Part shown: piece after piece, positions 1,043 through 63,033 of the stretch | Layout of the letters: each line of letters begins with the position of its first letter | Numbering within the stretch: position 1 is the stretch's first letter | From: Patescibacteria group bacterium | GTDB lineage: Bacteria > Patescibacteriota > Patescibacteriia > UBA9570 | Length of the DNA stretch: 64,000 nt | Direction of reading: 5' to 3' | Assembly (NCBI GenBank): GCA_041660305.1 | Contig: JBAZWO010000006.1 | Span: forward strand, 16,432-80,431 | Notes under the pieces: generated by a model | What the model was told of the DNA's origin: nothing | The model's database searches: none | What the model saw: the letters and a program-made list of their open reading frames with translations, nothing else | Made by a program: the position numbers and the translations under genes

Positions 1043-1170
1043 CTACCTTCCATCCCCAACCCTTCCCTCCTCTAAAGAGGGAAGGGAGAAATTTCTTCTC
1101 CTCCCTTTAGAGGGGAGGCCTCCGGTTCTACGAAGTCGTAGGCTCGGAGAGAGGTTGGAAGGTGGGGTAG
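1043..1170. repeat. GC-rich nested-hairpin element, copy A (CTACC...GGTAG termini)
   Basis: A 128-bp GC-rich island in AT-rich DNA. It has a perfect 10-bp hairpin at 1060-1069/1077-1086 (CCCTTCCCTC/GAGGGAAGGG) and CTACGA-AG-TCGTAG at 1128-1141. Positions 1043-1090 (48 nt) are identical to 60077-60124. Confidence 0.85.
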
Positions 1171-1888
1171 TTTTTTTTGCAACCGTAACAATATTACGCT
1201 TATTCTCTGAATAAGCTTGTTGTTGTATTTGCCAGCCAGTAGCGTTTAATAAATAATTTAATTCTTTTAACGTAAAACCATGATAATAACGCTGGGCTAA
1301 AATTTTTCCAGCGCCATTTTTCCAAGGAATTAACGCATCGCCTGGATCGTATTGATTAACAAAATATTTTTTTAATTTTGGTTGATCCAAATTCCAGTTA
1401 GTCATGAATAATAGGCCAGCTGGTTTGGTTACCCGATGAAATTCTGTTAACGCTTGTAAACGTAATTGTTCAGACGGAATGTGTTGCAAGCTAGCAATGG
1501 CGGCAACAACATTAAAAACACCTTCTGGAAATGGTAGTTTTAACATTGAGCTTACAATGAAATTTAATTCAGGATATCGTTGTTTAGCGTTGGTGATTAA
1601 TTTTTCGGAAATATCTAGGCCGGTGTATTGTACGGGCTTGATTTTATTGATAATTTCCGCTAATCTGCCGTTACCACAACCGACATCTAATATTGTAATT
1701 TTATCAGCCCGCCTCGCCTCGGCGGAGCTTTCGGCGTAGTCGAGGCGGGTATTTTCATAATTTATCAGTGTTTTCAGTGCTTCAAACTCTCTCCAGGCAT
1801 ATTGTCTGGTTCGTGTAAATTCGTCAGCGATGGTATTATAATCCTGAGTGATTTTATCTATTAATTTTTGCGCCAATGCTAATTGCAT
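1043..1888 (-). CDS. class I SAM-dependent methyltransferase, Trm9/ALKBH8-MT-like (putative tRNA cm5U34 methyltransferase); last ~42 aa encoded by repeat element A
   Basis: Motif I is ILDVGCGNGRL. The N-terminus DYNTIADEFTRTRQYAW, plus AIASLQHIP, TNWNLDQ and LIPW..RYYHGFTLKEL, resemble the Trm9 signature as I recall it. The stop codon TAG is the reverse complement of the element's terminal CTA (1043-1045). Confidence 0.75.
   Translation of the reverse strand: MQLALAQKLIDKITQDYNTIADEFTRTRQYAWREFEALKTLINYENTRLDYAESSAEARRADKITILDVGCGNGRLAEIINKIKPVQYTGLDISEKLITNAKQRYPELNFIVSSMLKLPFPEGVFNVVAAIASLQHIPSEQLRLQALTEFHRVTKPAGLLFMTNWNLDQPKLKKYFVNQYDPGDALIPWKNGAGKILAQRYYHGFTLKELNYLLNATGWQIQQQAYSENKRNIVTVAKKTTPPSNLSPSLRLRRTGGLPSKGRRRNFSLPSLEEGRVGDGR
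1708..1749. repeat. GC-rich inverted repeat inside the methyltransferase CDS
   Basis: CCCGCCTCG (1708-1716) pairs perfectly with CGAGGCGGG (1741-1749). The spacer contains a TCGGCG direct repeat. The element is translated in frame as ..YAESSAEARRADK.. just upstream of motif I. Confidence 0.7.
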
Positions 1889-8126: not shown

Positions 8127-9747
8127 ATTTAATTTTCCATTCATCTTGTTAATCACGTTGATCATGATCATCATGGTCACGAATTGTATTTGGATTTATC
8201 AAGACCAAAGTCCGCCATTATCAGATATGGCTGGCCATTCGTTTCGTAGTGTGCAAATGGCTCATTGGTTACAGGATGGTAAATTGTTAAGTATTTTAAA
8301 ACAAGATACCATTTATCCACCATTTACTTATCTGGTTACGGGAATTATTTTTTTATTAGTTGGTTATTATCCAGATATTCCACAGTATTCGTTATTGTTA
8401 TGGGTAATAATATTAATGATTTCTATTTACAGTATTGGTAACACGATTTATAAAAATAAATATTTAGCGTTAGGCGCAACAGCGTTAACCATGTGTTATC
8501 CATTGGTAGCACATTTTAGCAGAATTTATGATCTTGATTTTCCGTTAACGGCCTTAGTAACAGCTAGTATGGCGGTATTATTACAAACGAATCATTTTGC
8601 TAAACGCCGGGAAACTATTGTTTTTTCATTACTAGTGGTAGCGGTATTATTAACCAAATGGACAGGAGTGTTTTTTATAGTGGGGCCAGCGTTTATTGTA
8701 TTATTATCAAAACGAAATAACATTAATATAAAAAATATTAGTCTGGCATTAGGCATTATTTTGGTGTTGACCATGCCTTGGTATTGGTTGCACACCAACA
8801 TCATTTTAGATATTGCCGAGGCTACGCGCAATAATGTGTTTTCTGTGCCACACGAGAATTTGTTACGTTTAAAAAGTTTGTTATTTTATGCACGATCTAT
8901 TACGCAAGGCATTATTTGGCCACTAACTCTAATATTTTTAACTGGTGTGATTATTTGTTTTAAAAAAATAAAACGTTGTTATTTTTGGCTATTAGTTAGT
9001 TGGTTGATAATACCATATTTAATCTTCACGTTTATTTATTCAAAAGAGATTCGTTATTTAATGCCGTTGTATCCGGCGCTAGCTCTTTGCAGTATGAGTT
9101 GTTTTAGTTATTTATTTTCAGCTTACTCACTGAAGCTTAAGCGTAGGTGGGTGTTCTCAGTAATTATTTCAGTATTCTCAGTGATTCTGATGTTTTGTAT
9201 TTGGTTCGATACATCTTGGGGCACAAGACTGTTACCATTTTCTCATGCCTACGGTTATCAAAAAATTACTCCTAAACAAGTGTATTATGGGTTTACGTAT
9301 CCTACGCAGTATCACACAACATTAATGTTAGTTGCTCAAGAACTAGCTAATATAGGTTCAGCTAAAGTAGCGGTAGTGCCGAATAGTATTTTTTTAACGG
9401 CTACGCAAATACAATATTACACGGCGTTGCATGGTAATATAAAGCTTAATTTTTCATTGAGTAGTAAATTGCGCAATCCGGCGTGGCGAGATGTATTACC
9501 TCAAGCCGATTATGTGATTACCAAAACCGGCGAACAAGGGCCAAAATTATGGGCAGCTAATTTAAAAGATATTGCAACAGCTGAACAGAATAATGATGTT
9601 ATTTTTCAGCAATTTGAATTAATTGGTCAGTGGCAATTAAATGGTATTGAAACTAGTGCGCAACAAATTAATTTATATAAAAAAAACGATAAATTACTCC
9701 CTTTCCCCTTAATAGGGGAAAGGGTTGGGGATAGAGGTAGGATTTAA
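8119..9747 (+). CDS. polytopic membrane protein, GT-C fold glycosyltransferase-like (PMT/ArnT, GT39/GT83-like); last ~16 aa encoded by repeat element C
   Basis: It has at least 10 hydrophobic segments, an IYPPFTYL motif typical of PMT_2/ArnT-like proteins, and a large C-terminal soluble domain. The C-terminal LLPFPLIGERVGDRGRI is read from the GC-rich hairpin. Confidence 0.6.
   Translation: MRKFNFPFILLITLIMIIMVTNCIWIYQDQSPPLSDMAGHSFRSVQMAHWLQDGKLLSILKQDTIYPPFTYLVTGIIFLLVGYYPDIPQYSLLLWVIILMISIYSIGNTIYKNKYLALGATALTMCYPLVAHFSRIYDLDFPLTALVTASMAVLLQTNHFAKRRETIVFSLLVVAVLLTKWTGVFFIVGPAFIVLLSKRNNINIKNISLALGIILVLTMPWYWLHTNIILDIAEATRNNVFSVPHENLLRLKSLLFYARSITQGIIWPLTLIFLTGVIICFKKIKRCYFWLLVSWLIIPYLIFTFIYSKEIRYLMPLYPALALCSMSCFSYLFSAYSLKLKRRWVFSVIISVFSVILMFCIWFDTSWGTRLLPFSHAYGYQKITPKQVYYGFTYPTQYHTTLMLVAQELANIGSAKVAVVPNSIFLTATQIQYYTALHGNIKLNFSLSSKLRNPAWRDVLPQADYVITKTGEQGPKLWAANLKDIATAEQNNDVIFQQFELIGQWQLNGIETSAQQINLYKKNDKLLPFPLIGERVGDRGRI
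9699..9741. repeat. GC-rich hairpin element, copy C
   Basis: A perfect 10-bp stem CCCTTTCCCC/GGGGAAAGGG with loop TTAATA (9699-9724), then GGGGATAGAGGTAGG. The 26-nt core and GGGGATAGAGGTA are shared with 61646-61690. Confidence 0.85.
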
Positions 9748-11806: not shown

Positions 11807-11812
11807 AATATC

Positions 11813-11885
11813 CTACCTCACCCTGTCTCTCGACTTACGCTCGAGACATCCCTCTCCTATTAGGAGAGGGAAAGAGGGAGAGGTA
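11813..11885. repeat. GC-rich nested-hairpin element, copy E
   Basis: 11-bp terminal inverted repeats TACCTCACCCT (11814-11824) and AGGGAGAGGTA (11875-11885) with 1 mismatch. Inner hairpins are TCTCGA/TCGAGA (11828-11846) and CCCTCTCC/GGAGAGGG (11850-11870). Confidence 0.8.
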
Positions 11886-12790
11886 ATTTTTAAATATTCC
11901 TTAATCCCTTCCTTAAAATTATACTTTGGTTTCCAGTTTAAGATAGCCCTAGCTTTGCGAGCATTTAAACACGAGCGCAGTGCTTCACCGGTACGCACGG
12001 CTTTGTATTTAGCCGTTGGCGCATGTTTAAAATTAGCACTAATGGTATCGTAAACCATTTGGTCACTTATTTCTTTACCTAAGCCTAAATTTACGGTTAA
12101 ATGATCTCCTTTTTTTAAACCAATTACGTTAGCCTGTACAATATCAGCCACATAAGTATAGTCGCGCGTTTTTGAGCCATCTCCATATATAGTTGGATTA
12201 ACATTCTGGCGAATTTTCTCGCTAAATATTGCTACCACACCAGCCTCACCATGTGGGTCTTGTCGTGGACCATACACATTTGGGTAACGAAAAATAGTGT
12301 AATTAAATTTTCCAACTCGAGCATAATATTCAATACACTTTTCGCCTAATAATTTTGATAAACCATATGGTGAAAGTGGTTCAGGGTTTACTCGTTCAGA
12401 AATGGGGTATTTGCCCGGATCTCCATAAATAGCGCCACCGGTAGAAGCGAAGATAAACTTTTTAATCTTAATTTCCATGCCCGTCAACAACAAGTTTACC
12501 GTGCCTTGTACGTTCACTTCCAAAGTTGGAATAGGGTCGGTAACCGATTTTACTACTTCCGCAATAGCGGCATGATGGTTAATAATTTCCGGTTTTTCTG
12601 TCTGCATAATCTTGCGAATAGCTGTTAGATCACGAATATCTGCCTGATAAAACTTAGCTTTTGGGTTAATATTCTGTTTAAAACCATGGTGCATACTATC
12701 AACCACCACTACTTTATGGCCTAATTTAATATAAGCAGCAGTAATATGAGAGGCAATGAATCCGGCTCCGCCGGTAACGAGAATACGCAT
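11813..12790 (-). CDS. NAD-dependent SDR epimerase/dehydratase (UDP-glucose 4-epimerase-like); last ~24 aa encoded by repeat element E
   Basis: GGAGFIASH, catalytic YGLSK, and RYPNVYGPRQDPHGEAGVV. The stop TAG is the reverse complement of the element's terminal CTA (11813-11815). Confidence 0.8.
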   Translation of the reverse strand: MRILVTGGAGFIASHITAAYIKLGHKVVVVDSMHHGFKQNINPKAKFYQADIRDLTAIRKIMQTEKPEIINHHAAIAEVVKSVTDPIPTLEVNVQGTVNLLLTGMEIKIKKFIFASTGGAIYGDPGKYPISERVNPEPLSPYGLSKLLGEKCIEYYARVGKFNYTIFRYPNVYGPRQDPHGEAGVVAIFSEKIRQNVNPTIYGDGSKTRDYTYVADIVQANVIGLKKGDHLTVNLGLGKEISDQMVYDTISANFKHAPTAKYKAVRTGEALRSCLNARKARAILNWKPKYNFKEGIKEYLKITSPSFPLLIGEGCLERKSRDRVR

Positions 12791-22370: not shown

Positions 22371-23627
22371 TTATAAATCACGCACTAGCCAATCATGTTT
22401 GAGTAAAACATTTCCTTGACCTTCAGGGGGTAGTTGACCAGAACCAAAGAAATCACCATATTCAACTTCAAAACAACCAGCATCGATAATCCAATCAGTA
22501 ATTACATTGCTTGCTGAGACAAATGTATTAAAATAGTAGGTGCCAGGCATTAATGGCAAATTATGCCATTCTAAAATAAATTGCCCCTTAGACGGGATAG
22601 TCTTAAACACGTTTCCAGTTGCAAGATTTATCATATTTAGAAATGTTTCTCCAAATTGATTCATAATTGGAAATGAAACAATCACATCATGAACAGTGCT
22701 AAAGGTAGCGTCTGTTTCATAGTTAAAAATGATGCGAACGTCTTGTCCGGTACGTAGAATTGATATAGCTTCACTTGAAAAATTTTCAAATCTTATTTGA
22801 GTTATTTTTATTTTACCATTACCTTGTCGATCTTTACGCTGATCTAATTTGATTTCTGCAGATACAACCGAATTGTCTTTTAGATATTCATGAATAGTTT
22901 CTTCAACAGGAGCGTCCTTAATAACGTATCCATCTTTTAATAAAATAGCTCGTTGGCACAGTTTTTGGATAGCACTTAAATTATGACTAACAAAAATAAT
23001 AGTGCGTCCTTTATTATGAGTTACTTCGCTCATTTTTCCTAAACATTTTTTTTGAAATTGAGTATCACCCACTGCTAATACTTCATCAACTAACAGAATC
23101 TCTGGTTCTAGATGAGCGGCTACAGCAAAAGCTAATCGTACATACATGCCAGAGGAATAGTGTTTCACTGGAGTGTCTAAAAATTGTTCAATTTCGGCAA
23201 AAGCAACTATCTCAGTAAATTTTTTTTGAATTTCTCTTTTTGTCATTCCTAAGATGGCTCCATTTAAAAAAATATTTTCTCTTCCAGTTAGTTCCGGATG
23301 AAAACCAGTACCAACTTCAAGTAAACTTGCCACTCTACCATGCAAAGTGATGCGGCCTGTGGTTGGCGGTGTAATTTGTGATAAAATTTTTAGCAAGGTG
23401 CTTTTGCCAGCTCCATTACGTCCAATTAAGCCGATTATTTCGCCACGAGTAACTGAAAAATTAACATCCTGCAAGGCAAAAAATTGTCGTACTTCAGTTT
23501 TTGAATGAAATAAATGTTTCGGGTTAAGCATTTTACCAAGAACATCACGTAGAGATAAATAAGATGCCTGCTTGCCCAAACGATATTGTTTGCTAATATG
23601 ATCTACTTGAATAATTGGTTTTTCCAT
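22371..23627 (-). CDS. wzt: polysaccharide ABC exporter ATP-binding protein with extended C-terminal domain (Wzt/TagH type), copy 1
   Basis: Walker A GRNGAGKST, signature YSSGMYVRL, Walker B LLVDEVLAVGD, plus about 170 aa of extra C-terminal domain. Confidence 0.9.
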   Translation of the reverse strand: MEKPIIQVDHISKQYRLGKQASYLSLRDVLGKMLNPKHLFHSKTEVRQFFALQDVNFSVTRGEIIGLIGRNGAGKSTLLKILSQITPPTTGRITLHGRVASLLEVGTGFHPELTGRENIFLNGAILGMTKREIQKKFTEIVAFAEIEQFLDTPVKHYSSGMYVRLAFAVAAHLEPEILLVDEVLAVGDTQFQKKCLGKMSEVTHNKGRTIIFVSHNLSAIQKLCQRAILLKDGYVIKDAPVEETIHEYLKDNSVVSAEIKLDQRKDRQGNGKIKITQIRFENFSSEAISILRTGQDVRIIFNYETDATFSTVHDVIVSFPIMNQFGETFLNMINLATGNVFKTIPSKGQFILEWHNLPLMPGTYYFNTFVSASNVITDWIIDAGCFEVEYGDFFGSGQLPPEGQGNVLLKHDWLVRDL

Positions 23628-51658: not shown

Positions 51659-52914
51659 ATAAACCAGTTATTACCATTGAACACGTTAGTAAACGATATA
51701 GTCTAAACAGGGTAGCACTTGATAATACGTTGCGCGATAAAATTACGCACGCGCTTTATAAACGTAATGAGCCCAAGCAGTCTGCTAAGGTGGATTTTTT
51801 AGCATTGCAAGATATTAATCTAACTGTTCAACAAGGAGAAACGTTAGGAATCATTGGTCGTAATGGTGCGGGTAAAAGCACATTGTTAAAAGTACTATCA
51901 CAAATTACACCTCCAACTGCAGGGAAAATTACGTTATGTGGGCGAGTGGCTAGTTTGTTAGAAGTAGGCACAGGCTTTCATCCAGAGTTAACTGGGCGGG
52001 AAAATATTTTTCTTAATGGGGCAATATTAGGTATGACTCGTAAAGAAATTAATAAAAAATTTAATGACATTGTTACTTTTGCGGAAATCGAACAATTTAT
52101 TGATACGCCAGTTAAACGTTATTCTAGTGGTATGTATGTTCGTTTGGCGTTTGCTGTAGCCGCTCAACTTGAACCGGAAATTTTAATTATTGACGAAGTT
52201 TTGGCCGTCGGAGACATTCAATTTCAAAAAAAATGTCTTGGTAAAATGGGCGAAGCAGGCAAGCAAGGAAGAACAGTAATTTTTGTTAGCCACAACATGA
52301 ATGCGATTGAACAATTGTGTCGGTCTTGTGTATGGTTAGATCATGGCATGGTTAAAGCACATAGCAATAATGATGTATCGAGTGTTATTAAAGCGTATGT
52401 GGCAGAAAGTCTAGACAAAACTCAGGCTACCCAGTGGGTGAATAATAACAATGAATTTGCTAATCAATGGTTTACACCATGTAAATTTTATTTAGCTGAT
52501 GCTTATGGTAAAGCGCTTATATTACCACATAGTAATAATAAAGAAGCTTGGGTTCATATTGAAGGCGATATTACAGAAAGTGATACAGCCTTAACTATTG
52601 GTTATGCGATTTATTCCATGGAAGGCAATTTGTTATACTGGTCTTATCAAACTGATCAATCAGAATCTCAATGGCCAAAACTAAAGTTGGGCAAAATTAA
52701 GTTACGCAGCGCTTTACCCCAACGTTTTTTAAATGAGGGTGATTATCGAATAGAGCTTATTTCTAGTTTACATTTTCGACAATGGTTATGTGAGCCAGGC
52801 GTGCATACCCCTACTATATTTTTATCTATTCAAGGTGGTTTGAGCGATTCACCTTATTGGTTAGCTAAACGACCTGGTTTATTAGCGCCGGTTTTGCCAT
52901 GGGAACAATACTAA
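51655..52914 (+). CDS. wzt: polysaccharide ABC exporter ATP-binding protein with extended C-terminal domain (Wzt/TagH type), copy 2
   Basis: GRNGAGKST, YSSGMYVRL and LIIDEVLAVGD. The N-terminal 250 aa closely resemble copy 1, while the C-terminal roughly 170 aa are unrelated by eye. Confidence 0.9.
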   Translation: MNKPVITIEHVSKRYSLNRVALDNTLRDKITHALYKRNEPKQSAKVDFLALQDINLTVQQGETLGIIGRNGAGKSTLLKVLSQITPPTAGKITLCGRVASLLEVGTGFHPELTGRENIFLNGAILGMTRKEINKKFNDIVTFAEIEQFIDTPVKRYSSGMYVRLAFAVAAQLEPEILIIDEVLAVGDIQFQKKCLGKMGEAGKQGRTVIFVSHNMNAIEQLCRSCVWLDHGMVKAHSNNDVSSVIKAYVAESLDKTQATQWVNNNNEFANQWFTPCKFYLADAYGKALILPHSNNKEAWVHIEGDITESDTALTIGYAIYSMEGNLLYWSYQTDQSESQWPKLKLGKIKLRSALPQRFLNEGDYRIELISSLHFRQWLCEPGVHTPTIFLSIQGGLSDSPYWLAKRPGLLAPVLPWEQY

Positions 52915-57921: not shown

Positions 57922-57940
57922 ATCACCGGAAGGTTTTGTT
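57913..57940 (+). terminator. intrinsic terminator (attenuator) upstream of aroF
   Basis: A perfect 9-bp stem ACCTTCCGG (57913-57921) / CCGGAAGGT (57926-57934) with loop ATCA, followed by TTTGTT. Confidence 0.65.
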
Positions 57941-57983
57941 ATATGAATCAGTTACAAATAATAAATTAAGCCATAATACAAAT

Positions 57984-59000
57984 ATGATAATAGTAATGCA
58001 AGAAGCAGCGGCCAAAGCACAAGTAACGGCCGTAGTGAATCATGTTAAAGAATTAGGCCTCAAGCCTGTGTTATTAGAAGGCACCGAACGTAATGTGATT
58101 GCCGTAATTGGTGATGAGCGTACGTTAGATATGCACGCCATAAATGCCATGGCCGGTGTGGAAAAAGTAATGCCCGTATTAGCGCCTTTTAAATTAGCTT
58201 CCCGTGAACACGCTCATGTAAAATCGGTTATCAATATTACGGAGCAGGTAAGTATTGGTGGTAAACGGTTAGCCATCATGGCCGGCAACTGTGCGGTAGA
58301 AACAGCCGAGATTTCTATGGCCACGGCGAAAGCGGTAAAACAAGCTGGAGCTAATATTCAACGGGGTGGTGCCTTTAAGCCGCGCTCGTCACCATACTCG
58401 TTTCAAGGTTTAGGCGAGGCCGGCTTGAAAATATTACAAGCGGTGCGAGCCGAAACAGGCTTGCCAATTATTACAGAAATATTAGATCCGCGGCATGTAG
58501 AGCAGGTAGCTAGTTACGCTGATATTTTGCAAATCGGTACACGTAACATGCAAAATTTTGAATTGTTAAAAGAAGTGGGTAACTGTAAAAAACCAGTATT
58601 GTTAAAACGTGGCATGGCGGCCACCATTGAAGAGTTTTTGTTATCAGCGGAATATATTTTATCGAGTGGTAACCCTAACGTGATTTTATGTGAACGGGGG
58701 ATTCGTACCTACGAAACCGCCACCCGTAATACCTTAGATATTTCCGCTATTCCCGTGTTAAAACACATGACGCATTTACCAGTAATAGTGGATCCTTCGC
58801 ATGCCGCTGGCAAACGAGATTACGTAGCAGCCTTAGCTAAAGCCGCTATTGCTGCCGGAGCTGATGGGTTACTGATGGATGTGCATCCTGATCCGGTAAA
58901 AGCGTTGGTAGATTCCGATCAAGCGTTAAACTTTGAATTATTTGCTGAATTAATGGTAGAGTTAAAACGGATTGCCGAGGCAGTTGGACGAACCATTTAA
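57984..59000 (+). CDS. aroF: 3-deoxy-7-phosphoheptulonate (DAHP) synthase, type I-beta with N-terminal ferredoxin-like regulatory domain
   Basis: I prefer the ATG at 57984; the track start is a TTG at 57936. The N-terminus MIIVMQE...[11 protein letters not shown] matches the Thermotoga-type DAHPS regulatory domain. The core has [16 protein letters not shown] and VDPSHA. Confidence 0.9.
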
Positions 59001-59002
59001 TT

Positions 59003-60016
59003 ATGACACTAACAATCACTTCAAAGTCCCAATCAAAAAGTTATCCAGTATTTATTCAAGCTGGCAGTTTAGCTAAATTTAAATTTCCTAAAGATTCAGT
59101 AATTATTACCGATCGTGTAATTGCTAAACACTATGCCAAGTTCATTAAAAAATATCGGCGCATTATTCTACCTAGTGGTGAAGCTACTAAAAACTTAACT
59201 ACTATTCAAAAAATTTGTGAGCAATTAGTTAAGTTAGGTTGCAATCGATCTACTACGTTAATGGCGTTAGGCGGCGGGGTAATTGGGGATATTACTGGGT
59301 TTGTGGCTGCGGTGTACATGCGTGGTGTGGCGTATTATCAGTGCCCAACTACATTATTGGCCATGGTGGATTCTAGTTTAGGTGGAAAAACGGGAGTGGA
59401 TTTATCGGCTGGGAAAAATTTAGTTGGGACTATTTATCCACCGGTAGCGGTAATAATGGATCCGTTAGTTTTAACCACATTACCAAATAAAATATTCACA
59501 ACTAGTTTAGGTGAAGTAGTAAAATATGGTTTATTAGACGGCACATTTTTTGCTTGGTTAGAAAAAAATAAAGTTAATATAAAACAGCGTAAATTAAATA
59601 CCTTACAACAATTAATTATTAAGTGTGCGGAAATAAAACAAGCCATTGTGGAAGCGGATGAACATGAAGGCGGGGCACGTATGCTACTTAATTTAGGTCA
59701 CACATTTGGCCACGCGTTTGAACAATTAAGTGGCTACAGGTTACCACATGGTCAAGCGGTGGCCATTGGTTTAGTGCAGGCTGCTCAGTTTGCTCACATG
59801 CTGGAACTAGAGCGTTTAATTAATTTGTTACAGTATTTTAATCTACCTATCAAACTAGCTAAACCGTATCCCATTAATCAAGTAATTAAAGCTATGCAGG
59901 CTGATAAAAAACGTCATGGTAATCAATTTACCTTAATATTACCCGAAGCCATTGGGCACACCACCATTCATAATTATATTACTAAGCAGCAAATAATTAA
60001 GTTTTTTATAAATTAA
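59003..60016 (+). CDS. aroB: 3-dehydroquinate synthase
   Basis: GGGVIGDITGFVAAVYMRGV, DSSLGGKTGVD, and NLGHTFGHAFE. Confidence 0.92.
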   Translation: MTLTITSKSQSKSYPVFIQAGSLAKFKFPKDSVIITDRVIAKHYAKFIKKYRRIILPSGEATKNLTTIQKICEQLVKLGCNRSTTLMALGGGVIGDITGFVAAVYMRGVAYYQCPTTLLAMVDSSLGGKTGVDLSAGKNLVGTIYPPVAVIMDPLVLTTLPNKIFTTSLGEVVKYGLLDGTFFAWLEKNKVNIKQRKLNTLQQLIIKCAEIKQAIVEADEHEGGARMLLNLGHTFGHAFEQLSGYRLPHGQAVAIGLVQAAQFAHMLELERLINLLQYFNLPIKLAKPYPINQVIKAMQADKKRHGNQFTLILPEAIGHTTIHNYITKQQIIKFFIN

Positions 60017-60178
60017 ACACCCTCAACCCCCTAAACATCCTACCTCACTCCCCCTAACCCCCTCTCTCCTCTGATTCTACCTTCCATCCCCAACCCTTCC
60101 CTCCTCTAAAGAGGGAAGGGAGAATTACGAAATTATTCCCTCCTTCCTTTGAGGAAGGAGGGTTAGGGAGGAAGGTAG
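60017..60178. repeat. GC-rich nested-hairpin element, copy B (composite), filling the aroB/aroA-aroK spacer
   Basis: Outer imperfect inverted repeats lie at 60040-60060 and 60160-60178 (CTACCT.../...AGGTAG). The inner 48 nt at 60077-60124 are identical to 1043-1090. A perfect 10-bp hairpin CCCTCCTTCC/GGAAGGAGGG lies at 60138-60162. Confidence 0.85.
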
Positions 60179-60211
60179 TATTGATGAGAAGAGACAGAAG
60201 GCCAAAGAGTT

Positions 60212-61693
60212 ATGCATCTTAAACCCGTCAAAATCACCCTTACTTTACCTGGTTCTAAATCGTTAACCCAACGAGCGTTAATTTGTGCTAGCTTGGCGCA
60301 AGGGCAATCAATTATTACGGCACCTAATTATGGTGATGATTTACAATATTTAATTAAGGCATTGCAACAACTAGGTGTACGTATACAAAAAAAATCGAAC
60401 CAACTAATTATAAATGGAGTAGCTGGAAAGTTTTGTGTGCCAACTAAGCCAATTTATGTAGGCGATTCCGGTGCTAATTATCGTTTTCTAGCCGAATTAG
60501 TACCAGTCGGTACCAAATTAACGGGTTCAGCTCAATTACAAAAACGTTTACTAAAAACGGCGCCAACTAGTCAAACGATATCTGGAAAATTATTAGCCGG
60601 TACCCTAACTAAGATACCTGATAAGTTAGTTTCCAAAGGTTATGTGGCCATGACACAAGCCGTTATTCGTGATTTTTCCGGACGCGGTCGAAAATATATT
60701 ATCGAGCCCGATGCTAGTGCGGCCACATATTGGCTCACTTATAACTGGATAACTGGTGCAAAAATAACGTTTAGTAACTGGCCAGTAAAATCTTATCAAC
60801 CTGATTTTCAGTATGCTAAAGCATTGCAACAGTTAACTAACGGCCAAACAGCGTTTGATTTTAATACCATGCCGGATAGCGTAATGAGTTTAGCTGTAGC
60901 AGCCATTTTTACCAAGAAAATAATTACTATTAAAAATATTTCCCAGCTTACTTACAAAGAAAGTAATCGTTTGCAAGCGTTACATTATAATCTAACTAAA
61001 ATCAACATAAAAAATACTATTACAAAAAACAGCATTACTATTTATGGCACGGGTGGTAAATTTAAACATTCCAAAATTAAAACTTTTAATGATCACCGCT
61101 TGGCCATGAGTTTTGGGGTATTAGGTTTGCCAGTAGATAAACCAAATTGTGTAAATAAAAGTTATCCTAATTTTTGGCAAGATTATAAAAAAATTCAAGA
61201 GGCTAATGTAGTGTTAACCGGTATGCGTGGGGTAGGCAAAACTACGTTAGGTAAACAATTAGCCAAACAATGGGGTATGAAGTTTGTGGATTTAGATCAA
61301 CTTATTGAACGTAAAGCTAAATTACCAATTGCTGAAATTGTTGCACGCTACGGCTGGAAAAAATTTCGTGCACTTGAACATCAAGTTTGTAAACAAATTA
61401 CTAAATTACAAAATACGGTTATTGCAACTGGCGGCGGCACATTAATGTATACACGTAATTACCAATTACTAAAACATAATTATATTATTTTATTAACCGC
61501 GCCATTAACTACATTAGCTAAAAGAATTAAACAAGATAACAATATTAGGCCAGCATTATCAAAAAATAACACGGCATTATCAGAATTAAAGGCGATTTGG
61601 GATAAGCGCAAAGAAACATATTATAAAATAGCGGATTTAATTTCCCCCTTTCCCCTTAATAGGGGAAAGGGGGCGAGGGGGATAGAGGTATGA
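60212..61693 (+). CDS. aroA-aroK: bifunctional EPSP synthase (short form, ~330 aa) / shikimate kinase; last ~16 aa encoded by repeat element D
   Basis: AroA motifs are LPGSKS, GDSGANYRF, EPDASAATY, KESNRL, NDHRLAMSF and KSYPNFW. The AroK domain starts near 61211 (TGMRGVGKTTLGKQLA, VDLD, GGG). Confidence 0.85.
   Translation: MHLKPVKITLTLPGSKSLTQRALICASLAQGQSIITAPNYGDDLQYLIKALQQLGVRIQKKSNQLIINGVAGKFCVPTKPIYVGDSGANYRFLAELVPVGTKLTGSAQLQKRLLKTAPTSQTISGKLLAGTLTKIPDKLVSKGYVAMTQAVIRDFSGRGRKYIIEPDASAATYWLTYNWITGAKITFSNWPVKSYQPDFQYAKALQQLTNGQTAFDFNTMPDSVMSLAVAAIFTKKIITIKNISQLTYKESNRLQALHYNLTKINIKNTITKNSITIYGTGGKFKHSKIKTFNDHRLAMSFGVLGLPVDKPNCVNKSYPNFWQDYKKIQEANVVLTGMRGVGKTTLGKQLAKQWGMKFVDLDQLIERKAKLPIAEIVARYGWKKFRALEHQVCKQITKLQNTVIATGGGTLMYTRNYQLLKHNYIILLTAPLTTLAKRIKQDNNIRPALSKNNTALSELKAIWDKRKETYYKIADLISPFPLNRGKGARGIEV
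61644..61690. repeat. GC-rich hairpin element, copy D
   Basis: A perfect 12-bp stem CCCCCTTTCCCC/GGGGAAAGGGGG with loop TTAATA (61644-61673), then GGGGGATAGAGGTA. The core is shared with copy C at 9699-9741. Confidence 0.85.
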
Positions 61694-63033
61694 TTTGTAT
61701 TGTCATCACCAATCCATCTCAAATTAAAACAGCCAACAAAACCGCCGCTAATTTATTAGAATTGCGCACAGATTTATATAAAATTTTTTCTTTAAGTAAA
61801 TTAGTGAAACAATGCCAGAAACCTGTTATTGTTACCATTAAAAATCAAGATAAACAGTTATTGCAAGAAGCTTTAAATTTAAACGTAGCTTATATTGATA
61901 TTGATTACAAAAATAAATTACTGTTAAACTATTTTGAAAAAAATAACAAAAATAATAAAACCAAATTAATTATTTCGTATCATAATTTTTCTCACACTCC
62001 TTCATTCAAACAGTTGGATCGGTTGGTTAAATCAGGCGTGAATAAAATAGCAACCATGATTAACGCGGTTGAGGATAACTGGGTAATCGCGCAGTTATTA
62101 AAAAAATATCCTAATAAAATTACCGCTATTGGCATGGGGGAATTAGGGATCATGACAAGACTGCATCCGTGGCAGAAGATTAGTTATTTTGCGATTGGCT
62201 TTGGTAGAGACGCCTTGCAAGGCGTCTCTACCAAAAAAATTGCTCCAGGGCAATTAACTATTCAAGAGCAAAAATTAAAATTATATGGCATTATTGGTAA
62301 TCCGGTGCAGCATAGCTTATCGCCAAAATTACATAATAGTTGGTTCAAGCAGCATAATATTTTAGCACTATATCAACGCTGGCAGGTAAAGACGTTGCAT
62401 GCAACGTCTCTACAGTTAATGATGAAAATATTCAGATTTTTTGATTTAGCCGGCGCGTCGGTAACCATGCCATATAAAAAAGATATTATTAAATATTTAG
62501 ATAGCATTAATATTCATGCCAAAAAGATTGGTGCAGTTAATACCATTGTGCGGAAAGGAAATAAATTAATTGGCTATAATACCGATTGGATCGGGGTAAA
62601 ATTAGTATTTAACCCCCTGCCTTGCAGGGAAGGGGGTAGGGGGAAGGGTCTACGCGTCTTAATCTTAGGCCGCGGTGGCGCAGCTCAGGCAGTGGCGTAT
62701 GCCATGAAAAAAATGGGTGCGAAATCAATTAACATGTTATCACGTCATGATAAACCAGATATAAATTTTGATATTCTAATTAACGCCACACCCGTGCGTG
62801 ATAAATTATTAATTCCGAAAGAATTATTACACGGTAAAATCGTGATGGATTGTAATTACCTGCCTTCGCTAAAGCTATGGCAGGCAGGTGGCGCTACTAA
62901 ATTATTACGTGTGGCAAAAAAAATGAACGCAATTACTATAGATGGATTACCAATGTTAATCAATCAAGCCAAAGAGCAATTTAGATTGTGGACTAGTAGA
63001 GACGTAGCGCGCTACGTCTCTACTATGTTATAA
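61690..63033 (+). CDS. aroD-aroE: bifunctional type I 3-dehydroquinate dehydratase / shikimate 5-dehydrogenase
   Basis: AroD motifs are ELRTDL, IISYHNF and KIATM. AroE motifs are YGIIGNPVQHSLSP, SVTMPYK, AVNTI, GYNTD and LGRGGAAQA. The ATG overlaps the upstream stop (ATGA). Confidence 0.88.
   Translation: MICIVITNPSQIKTANKTAANLLELRTDLYKIFSLSKLVKQCQKPVIVTIKNQDKQLLQEALNLNVAYIDIDYKNKLLLNYFEKNNKNNKTKLIISYHNFSHTPSFKQLDRLVKSGVNKIATMINAVEDNWVIAQLLKKYPNKITAIGMGELGIMTRLHPWQKISYFAIGFGRDALQGVSTKKIAPGQLTIQEQKLKLYGIIGNPVQHSLSPKLHNSWFKQHNILALYQRWQVKTLHATSLQLMMKIFRFFDLAGASVTMPYKKDIIKYLDSINIHAKKIGAVNTIVRKGNKLIGYNTDWIGVKLVFNPLPCREGGRGKGLRVLILGRGGAAQAVAYAMKKMGAKSINMLSRHDKPDINFDILINATPVRDKLLIPKELLHGKIVMDCNYLPSLKLWQAGGATKLLRVAKKMNAITIDGLPMLINQAKEQFRLWTSRDVARYVSTML
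62201..62234. repeat. perfect 34-bp palindrome, GTAGAGACG-N10-CGTCTCTAC family, copy 1
   Basis: TTGGTAGAGACGCCTTG|CAAGGCGTCTCTACCAA. It is in frame as GRDALQGVST in the AroD-AroE linker. Confidence 0.9.
62386..62413. repeat. 28-bp palindrome (1 mismatch), same family, copy 2
   Basis: GTAAAGACGTTGCA|TGCAACGTCTCTAC. It is in frame as VKTLHATSLQ, a different frame from copies 1 and 3. Confidence 0.85.
62612..62637. repeat. GC-rich hairpin inside aroE part
   Basis: ACCCCC (62612-62617) pairs with GGGGGT (62632-62637). The alternative is CCCTGC-CTT-GCAGGG (62615-62629). It is translated as NPLPCREGGRGKG just before the GRGGA nucleotide-binding loop. Confidence 0.6.
62858..62889. repeat. GC-rich inverted repeat inside aroE part
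   Basis: ACCTGCC (62858-62864) pairs with GGCAGGT (62883-62889). It is translated as YLPSLKLWQAGG. Confidence 0.45.
62994..63025. repeat. perfect 32-bp palindrome, GTAGAGACG-N10-CGTCTCTAC family, copy 3
   Basis: TAGTAGAGACGTAGCG|CGCTACGTCTCTACTA. It is in frame as SRDVARYVST at the extreme C-terminus of AroD-AroE. Confidence 0.9.

Follow-up and report, generated by a model that had tools for sequence, protein, structure and literature searches.

The window, by which we mean the whole 64-kb stretch of DNA analysed here (33.9% GC), carries a shikimate pathway operon in which a spacer of 195 nucleotides (nt), hereafter element B, parts aroB from a fused aroA-aroK gene (aroAK). The fusion protein is identical to MFA5995942.1 and MFA6388871.1, both annotated from a "Patescibacteria group bacterium" metagenome-assembled genome (MAG). 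In operon order a DAHP synthase gene (57936-59000) comes first, followed by aroB on the plus strand (59003..60016; 3-dehydroquinate synthase, Pfam DHQ_synthase and DHQS_C), the spacer (60017-60211, 49.7% GC), aroAK (60212..61693, plus strand; Pfam EPSP_synthase and SKI) and an aroD-aroE fusion (aroDE, 61690-63033, plus strand); the chorismate synthase and chorismate mutase genes lie further downstream. The stop codon of aroB, TAA at 60014-60016, directly abuts the spacer. An earlier, sequence-only reading of this DNA had described the other junctions of the operon as 2-nt gaps or overlaps, and they are indeed tight: only 2 nt separate aroB from the gene before it, and aroAK shares 4 nt with aroDE. 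Our analysis shows that the spacer is a cluster of repeats from a lineage-specific family of small, non-autonomous palindromic elements.

In two further assemblies of the organism the spacer has exactly this sequence, and a third breaks off within it. It is absent from the aroB/aroAK junction in all five relatives compared (L001, L002, L144, L145 and L146; AroAK identity 42-69%). In L001 and L002, the two closest relatives (69% and 67% AroAK identity), the genes as called overlap by 47 nt, and the aroB stop codon lies within the conserved LKPVK codons of aroAK; the overlap is 29 nt in L144 and 17 nt in L145. The remaining relative, L146, has a 54-nt gap that holds an unrelated palindrome. The AroB protein of the window ends in ..KFFIN*, the counterpart of ..RFLKTR* and ..RFLQAR* in relatives. 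Judged from these alignments, the comparison shows that the cluster arrived after the split from the nearest sampled relatives, in what had been a 17-47 nt overlap between aroB and aroAK. The proposal that a polycistronic unit had been interrupted by an insertion is borne out, and the genome comparison suggested along with it finds no spacer conserved at orthologous loci. An assembly or adaptor artefact is ruled out by the identity across independent assemblies and by an in-frame copy found at orthologous positions in two species.

The two halves of the spacer differ sharply in composition: 60017-60107 (91 nt) is 80% pyrimidine, with 50 C and a single G, and 60108-60211 (104 nt) is 69% purine, in agreement with the pyrimidine-rich left and purine-rich right halves described before. 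The core is a complete element of 102 nt on the plus strand (60077..60178) that consists of two inverted units. Its left terminus (60077-60096) is followed by a first hairpin with a perfect 10-bp stem (60094-60120), an AT-rich linker (60125-60137), a second hairpin with a perfect stem (60138-60162) and the right terminus (60160-60178). The second stem had been counted as 10 bp; it is perfect, as claimed, and has 11 bp closed by a 3-nt loop. The two termini pair with one bulge and one mismatch. The stretch 60077-60124 is identical at 48 of 48 positions to 1043-1090 in another copy in the window, element A, as had been reported, and 51 of 52 positions agree over 60073-60124.

The sequence-only reading had paired the right terminus with 60040-60060 as outer arms of one element. 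This pairing does not hold: the right terminus pairs best with 60077-60096, and of the units at 60077 and 60040 it is the former that gives the better alignment to the reverse-complemented right unit (60138-60178). Upstream of the inner element, 60040..60076 (plus strand) is the left half of an outer, older unit, recognised by a motif match and by its alignment with the inner unit and with termini on L137 and L135, two other contigs of the same organism. It comprises a terminus, CTACCTCACTCCCCCTAACCC, a pyrimidine arm, CCCCCTCTCTCCTC, and a loop remnant, TGATT, and thus looks like a unit truncated within the loop. Its partner is a decayed right arm at 60183..60209 (plus strand; GATGAGAAGAGACAGAAGGCCAAAGAG), which matches the reverse complement of 60050-60076 if G-to-A transitions are credited. 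The match is gapless and in register, its score exceeds those of all 11,378 control segments from the window, and shuffles of matched composition score as high in only 0.35% of cases. The same test gave no signal for decayed partner arms at three solo units (L137:12378 and elements C and D of the window), which indicates that such an arm is not a general property of the flanks and that those three are true half-units. An element inside an element is therefore supported, with arms other than those first proposed: the left half at 60040-60076 is partnered by 60183-60209, beyond the end given earlier. Sequence alignment thus supports a complete pair (60077-60178) within an older unit whose right arm has decayed, so that element B extends to about 60209, 2 nt before the ATG of aroAK. 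Outermost on the left lies a further C-rich terminus fragment, ACACCCTCAACCCCCTAAACATC (60017..60039, plus strand), which aligns with arrays flanking the rRNA genes on L135; its motif CCTAAAC(W)TC ahead of CTACCT is found again at other loci.

Structure prediction for both strands, which had been proposed as a check, gives folds far better than those of shuffled sequences. The whole spacer folds as RNA with -73.4 kcal/mol in the sense orientation (z -4.6) and -99.7 kcal/mol in the antisense orientation (z -5.7); in the minus-strand RNA the decayed arm at 60183-60209 pairs with the left arm through G-U pairs. The inner element alone is predicted to form an end-to-end rod as RNA (-58.9 kcal/mol, z -6.5), and as single-stranded DNA (-32.9 kcal/mol, z -7.0) a terminal stem from which hairpin 1, a mini-hairpin and hairpin 2 branch off.

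The units of the spacer belong to a repeat family, here called family 1, whose copies we compared in the window and on the organism's other contigs from one metagenome scan (L135, L137, L142 and L138); the sequence of the organism available for copy counts and for the transposase search amounts to about 100 kb (~103 kb), a fraction of the genome. A unit is about 48 nt long and begins with a C-rich terminus, CTACCT(yy)ATCCCCAACCC; next comes a perfect hairpin whose 5' arm is all pyrimidine and whose 3' arm is all purine. The terminus takes the form CTACCTyyATCCCCAACCC or CTACCTCACyCCCCTAACCCC, with CTACCT..CCCnAACCC as a short form. Across all hairpin-bearing units the stems are perfect and 7-13 bp long, and the loops measure 3-8 nt. 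Five sites in the window match the terminus motif CTACCT..CCCYWAMCC (1043+, 9740-, 60040+, 60077+ and 60178-), against 0.01 expected. A profile built from 14 units matches the window at exactly five loci and finds further units on L135, L137 and L142; the ~103 kb hold 11 loci.

These copies occur in three arrangements. Inverted pairs, with an AT-rich linker of about 13-17 nt and the CTAC/GTAG ends pointing outward, are found at 60077-60178, in elements A (1043-1165) and E (11812-11885), and at L142:174-280 and L137:5935-6050; complete elements span 75-125 nt and have imperfect inverted ends of about 20 nt. Solo units are elements C (9692-9745) and D (61642-61693) and the one at L137:12378. One-sided stacks of termini make up the third arrangement (L135:5640-5745, L135:10355-10465 and L142:281-312), and element B as a whole also counts as a stack. 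Element A (1043..1165, plus strand) is complete, has three internal hairpins and encodes the last ~42 residues and the TAG stop of a minus-strand methyltransferase open reading frame (ORF; 1043..1888). Element C (9692..9745, minus strand), a terminus with its hairpin, lies between convergent genes. Element E (11812..11885, plus strand) is complete, represents a second subfamily with a close relative at L137:4164-4225, and lies between two minus-strand epimerase genes; the NAD-dependent epimerase ORF upstream of it (11813..12790, minus strand) stops on the element's terminal TAG. Both the methyltransferase and the epimerase ORF traverse a whole element and end on the TAG of the terminal AGGTAG (1043-1045 and 11813-11815). 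Arms made only of pyrimidines or only of purines cannot hold stop codons in any frame.

The hairpins vary in sequence and keep their pairing. Every hairpin-bearing unit found through the head of its terminus alone has a perfect stem. Among nine stem types, which group into a few sub-families, all seven loop-proximal pairs show C-G to T-A double changes; each of the 63 cells holds a Watson-Crick pair and none a G-T pair. The absence of G-T pairs argues for a constraint on the hairpins at the level of DNA, through mobilisation or repair, rather than at the level of RNA. From the lack of a visible target duplication, the frequency of half-units and stems that remain perfectly Watson-Crick despite their varying sequence, we infer that the units spread through a single-stranded DNA hairpin intermediate. 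This intermediate would be handled in trans by an enzyme, and an HUH/Y1 transposase of the RAYT kind would be the obvious candidate.

Family 1 is closest in organisation to the GTAG-tagged super-family of repetitive extragenic palindromes (REPs) described by Di Nocera, De Gregorio and Rocco (2013, PMC3733652). Those repeats have a stem of 6-13 bp with a small loop and an unpaired GTAG placed 0-2 nt from the stem on its 5' side; they occur as singletons, as head-head or tail-tail dimers and in groups, lie near the 3' ends of unidirectional or convergent genes, can provide a TAG stop through their tag, and number tens to hundreds of copies (PMC3733652). REP, BIME and REPIN elements are mobilised by RAYT/TnpAREP (Corneloup et al. 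2021, PMC8266576), and a 5'-GTAG followed by a hairpin is the configuration that TnpAREP recognises. In a REPtron the repeats flank the gene for this Y1/HUH transposase. Family 1 shares the short stem-loop units (7-13 bp), with sub-families that differ by complementary stem changes, and the terminal GTAG/CTAC tag; its members are likewise singletons, outward-tagged dimers or groups. They too lie near 3' ends, between unidirectional (eight loci) or convergent (one locus) and never between divergent genes, give a TAG stop to an upstream ORF, occur occasionally inside genes and show no target duplication. Unlike REPs, family 1 has strict pyrimidine-then-purine arms, no G-T pairs in its stems and a host from the Patescibacteria, or Candidate Phyla Radiation (CPR), and no RAYT was found in the ~100 kb.

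Several points weigh against reading the spacer as such a mobile repeat, or limit how far that reading reaches. In family 1 the tag is 7-8 nt (in the units of element B) or more from the foot of the hairpin, separated from it by a C-rich spacer, compared with 0-2 nt in REPs. Its polarity is mirrored, with CTAC on the 5' side and GTAG on the 3' side of the hairpin, and no arrangement of canonical 5'-GTAG-hairpin units reproduces it. The tag distance and the mirrored polarity argue against a standard RAYT, and tblastn searches with RAYT and IS200 TnpA sequences gave no match in the ~100 kb, which cover only part of the genome. Some of the hairpins were picked by a search that demanded perfect stems. 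The copy number holds for the ~103 kb, as the source genome lies outside the genome collection that was scanned. A CTACCTCAC-type terminus followed by a CTACCTyyATCCCC-type terminus recurs at L137:12345-12393 and on L135; given the composite or stacked termini on L135, L137 and L142, the nesting in the spacer could reflect the spread of a pre-formed composite block instead of two insertions at this site. Finally, any effect of the spacer at the RNA level is deduced from predicted structure. Family 1 works like REP/BIME elements but is not filed here as a member of that super-family, as two of its defining features, tag adjacency and polarity, fail.

Other known repeats fit less closely. The Correia/NEMIS elements of Neisseria and the ERIC/IRU elements of enterobacteria are small inverted-repeat elements that are co-transcribed in operons and form long hairpins that can alter mRNA processing or stability; their sequences are fixed, their inverted ends defined, and a TA target is duplicated in the case of Correia elements. 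Family 1 resembles them as a small inverted-repeat element within an operon that forms a long hairpin, but it is built of modular, variable units and shows no visible target duplication. As with the Rickettsia palindromic elements (RPE), the palindromic repeats of the window occupy a small AT-rich genome and include in-frame gene insertions (here in aroAK and aroDE), whereas element B is intergenic, the inserts are shorter (15-42 nt), no sequence similarity is evident and the host belongs to another phylum; RPE-4 and RPE-6 have been classed as CGTC-tagged REPs (PMC3733652). We also compared the family with integrons. The attC sites of integrons are imperfect palindromes that are recombined as folded single strands, with R''/R' boxes of the form RYYYAAC ... 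GTTRRRY. The termini of family 1 hold YYYYAAC ... GTTRRRR, which resembles these boxes. However, the motifs lie 13-14 nt inside the ends and match six of the seven consensus positions, the outer one failing, and the elements are scattered in conserved housekeeping operons rather than in cassette arrays, with no integrase seen. Identity with attC was rejected on account of the internal AAC/GTT motifs, the 6/7 match and the housekeeping neighbours.

We read the spacer, with fair confidence, as a non-autonomous, hairpin-dependent mobile repeat that, on the predicted structures, would be either neutral or a hairpin affecting mRNA stability or processing. The best of the alternatives, and one compatible with a mobile origin, is that the element has been exapted as an RNA element, in which the long double-stranded hairpin serves as a processing site for RNase III or a similar enzyme, or as a stability barrier, and sets the level of aroB relative to aroAK, aroDE and aroC. 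We regard this as possible, though considerably less likely than not. The very stable sense fold (-73.4 kcal/mol), the lack of a terminator, by which the hairpin is probably transcribed, and the exact fit of the element between the stop codon of one gene and the start codon of the next are in its favour, as are the softening of the right arm beside the ATG and the placement of family members almost only between co-directional or convergent genes. Similar repeats have been hypothesised to act as mRNA stabilisers or terminators (PMC3733652). However, five relatives run the operon without the spacer, and the stems hold no G-U pair, which points to a constraint at the DNA level. Precedents for an influence on transcripts exist, in that REP, ERIC and Correia elements affect mRNA fate.

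A second alternative is a classical miniature inverted-repeat transposable element (MITE), that is, a deletion derivative of an insertion sequence (IS) with a DDE transposase, recognised through the terminal inverted repeats CTACCT.../...AGGTAG. The imperfect inverted ends of ~20 nt and the length of complete elements, 75-125 nt, would suit such an origin. Yet a target-site duplication is visible at none of the ~16 termini inspected, solo half-units and one-sided terminus stacks are common, and there is no parent IS or transposase in the ~100 kb or in the neighbourhoods in relatives; we consider this origin unlikely. A MITE of the terminal-inverted-repeat type was rejected as a class, inverted ends being present but no direct repeat flanking any copy inspected. 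About as improbable, in our estimate, is a bolder proposal in which family 1 represents an unrecognised class of hairpin repeats in this clade of Patescibacteria, defined by mirror-polarity CTAC...GTAG tags, strict pyrimidine/purine arms and Watson-Crick stems; it would be moved by an enzyme other than a canonical RAYT, would have colonised operon junctions and enzyme genes, and would now cut tightly packed operons that lack Shine-Dalgarno sites into separately stable mRNA segments.

The palindromes might also have grown locally, without transposition, if template switching or slippage driven by hairpins makes and perfects palindromes in place. This would account for stems that are always perfect while their sequences differ, and for partial tandem duplications of half-units such as L142:250-312. 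However, two loci separated by 59 kb share an identical 48-nt block, different loci and species have conserved termini, and the inserted sequences are unrelated to their flanks, with no copy having an arm derived from local ancestral sequence; local growth is therefore a quite improbable origin. That the spacer is a conserved element of another kind, be it a cis-regulatory leader, an attenuator or a small RNA gene, would be consistent with the strong predicted structure, but is hardly credible given its absence from all orthologous junctions examined, the lack of a T-run and a promoter, Rfam matches to generic long-hairpin models only, far below gathering scores, and the same modules at unrelated loci.

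For the mobile-repeat reading, the question is what the spacer would do once in the operon. No terminator-like site on either strand and no promoter-like site was found in 60017-60211, where the hairpins are followed by GGTAGTATTGATGAG and not by a T-run. An intrinsic (Rho-independent) terminator was rejected for want of any site that combines a hairpin with a T-run, and the earlier suggestion of an internal attenuator finds no support for the same reason. A scan of the spacer against Rfam 15 returned only miRNA-precursor models, at 20-45 bits against gathering thresholds of 55-200, and nothing in the window reaches a gathering score. The operon mRNA would read through the cluster and form a very stable rod hairpin, which at most would act as a barrier to 3' exonucleases or as a site for a double-strand RNase that uncouples aroB from the downstream genes, and would otherwise be neutral. 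The most defensible reading on these models is a read-through passenger whose RNA hairpin may protect the upstream mRNA or offer a double-strand RNase site.

The insertion also bears on where translation of aroAK starts. The old aroAK ATG within aroB has been lost (TATGAT to AATTAT), and an in-frame stop codon at 60185-60187 excludes an upstream start, so that translation has to begin at the ATG at 60212, directly before LKPVK. The N-terminus of AroAK reads MH-LKPVK, compared with MILPPDNWNGS-LKPVK in the homologue P0002, and the start codon lies 2 nt past the decayed arm. The insertion ended the coupling of stop and start and separated aroAK from its earlier start codon, with translation now proceeding from a new ATG directly behind the element. 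The leader from the end of the inner element into aroAK (60179-60240, 62 nt, including the 33 nt before the ATG) is predicted to be unstructured (-6.5 kcal/mol, z -0.3). A Shine-Dalgarno motif is absent from the 25 nt upstream of the start in 48 of 50 genes, where the sequence is AT-rich. As the organism uses no Shine-Dalgarno sites, selection for an unstructured aroAK leader may have favoured the G-to-A decay of the right arm; in this model initiation takes place on an open, A-rich leader, which may explain the loss of G from the outer right arm. A Shine-Dalgarno role for the purine-rich, GGAGG-like right terminus was rejected, with 48 of 50 genes lacking the motif and the terminus 33 nt from the ATG. 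Only two GGAGG-like upstream cases occur, and both come from repeat elements. A TATAAT-like box precedes several starts by 7-12 nt, a hint at leaderless mRNAs or very short leaders. A 12-codon upstream ORF (MRRDRRPKSYAS*; 60184..60222, plus strand), recognised by translation, overlaps the aroAK ATG, and it is a speculative thought that it could couple translation.

Outside the organism, family 1 has a narrow distribution. The related species represented by L001/L136 carries it at other sites. In L145 (42% AroAK identity, 43% GC) there is a variant with GCACCTC.../...GAGGTGC termini, one copy of which follows the chorismate mutase gene (L145:16726-16862), and another lies in the 3' end of trpB, for tryptophan synthase beta (L145:8171-8208). 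Exact family-1 patterns have no real copies in 185,579 species-representative genomes, which do not include the source genome, or in IMG/VR. The scan of the genome collection gave four chance-like matches, of which the one in Berkelbacteria (L126/L143) is isolated in coding sequence and has no hairpin. On viral contigs a broad terminus pattern gave single chance matches only, among the matches listed, and a 19-base pattern was used afterwards; family-1 patterns there yielded only chance matches. The family looks specific to this lineage. The gene tables of the relatives list no Y1_Tnp domain, and the genes beside copies there have no Pfam match that suggests a nuclease or transposase. A literature search found no description of such repeats in Patescibacteria/CPR. 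The finding is ordinary in kind, a familiar sort of selfish DNA; it is new as a family, which is itself undescribed, new for a phylum that is not known for such repeats, and unusual in polarity and composition.

CPR genomes are regarded as streamlined and poor in repeats. The window, which belongs to such a genome, holds roughly one palindromic-repeat locus per 10-15 kb, and these repeats break translational coupling in a biosynthetic operon, rewrite the C-termini of proteins and sit in frame inside enzymes. For work with MAGs they matter as a cause of contig breaks (L005 and L001 end inside repeats), of inflated ORF ends and of complicated start-codon calls. They can also serve as presence/absence markers of strain or lineage, one insert in aroDE being common to one relative and absent from another. 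The mirrored tag polarity, together with the absence of a transposase among the ~100 kb, makes family 1 a useful test of the reach of the REP/RAYT model.

Repeats have entered the coding sequences downstream of the spacer as well. Alignments of proteins and DNA with relatives identify element D (61642..61693, minus strand) as a solo unit, 39 nt of which (61642-61680) add 13 codons in frame (SPFPLNRGKGARG) to the C-terminal end of AroAK; the rest overlaps the native ATGA junction of aroAK and aroDE. AroDE has five in-frame insertions relative to homologues, and three of them belong to a second family of 28-nt palindromes, GTAGAGACG-N10-CGTCTCTAC, whose centre is variable and usually palindromic. 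The three copies, in frame inside aroDE, lie at 62204 (62200-62235), 62386-62413 and 62996-63023, and a half-copy lies at 981-991. These palindromes are perfect, apart from one mismatch in the copy at 62386. This copy has an orthologue at L001:3835-3862 and is absent from L002, the closest full-length relative, so that the locus provides a presence/absence series. The further in-frame insertions, seen against four homologues at 62614-62634 and 62866-62892, are one family-1-like segment (CCCCTGCCTTGCAGGGAAGGG) and one small hairpin with TTACCTGCC...GGCAGGTGG ends.

Family 2 also occurs in L145 (L145:17241 and L145:21583) and L146 (L146:10961). The palindrome in the 54-nt aroB/aroAK gap of L146 (L146:9961-9990; GTAGAGACGCGATTAATCGCACCTCTAC) is of the family-2 type and differs from element B, which indicates that this junction was hit independently by a different repeat. 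Searches for the family-2 consensus found no description in the literature, the string matches being what appear, judged by paper titles, to be unrelated primer sequences. Among IMG/VR contigs, 116 stretches (L147-L262; 35-64% GC) carry family 2 at 114 distinct sites, against roughly two to three expected by our own estimate. Many of these viral contigs hold several copies, about 30% of the sites lie deep in long ORFs, and T-rich tails are few. Mu-like phage proteins (portal, Mu F and gp36) make up the largest gene clusters that the contigs share, with 27 loci in the top cluster.

Further observations concern family-1 copies elsewhere in the organism. A complete element with degenerate ends (L137:5935-6050) lies between rplK, for ribosomal protein L11, and the next gene of that operon. 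Two colinear stacks of three terminus modules each (L135:5640-5745 and L135:10355-10465), in inverted orientation and about 80% alike, flank a 23S-5S rRNA unit. Promoter- and terminator-like flanking sequences, judged by eye, would leave these arrays beyond the transcription unit, and a proximal flanking stem of its own is present at the 23S; a role as an rRNA processing stem was rejected on these two points. The 23S gene exceeds the Rfam model by about 1 kb and has a group I intron match (8234-8409) and a LAGLIDADG ORF (8669-9133) inside it.

Two further features of the window stand apart from the repeats. The AroA part of the fusion (60212-61200) lacks two segments of ~37 and ~17 residues that are present in P0004, a homologue with 46% identity; the same two gaps in EPSP synthase occur in the two closest relatives, and the Pfam match is split into two stretches. 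In a glycosyltransferase-rich region, 23024-23483 and 51796-52255 form a 460-nt inverted repeat, 75% complementary and 28 kb apart, which probably represents paralogous genes in opposite orientation.

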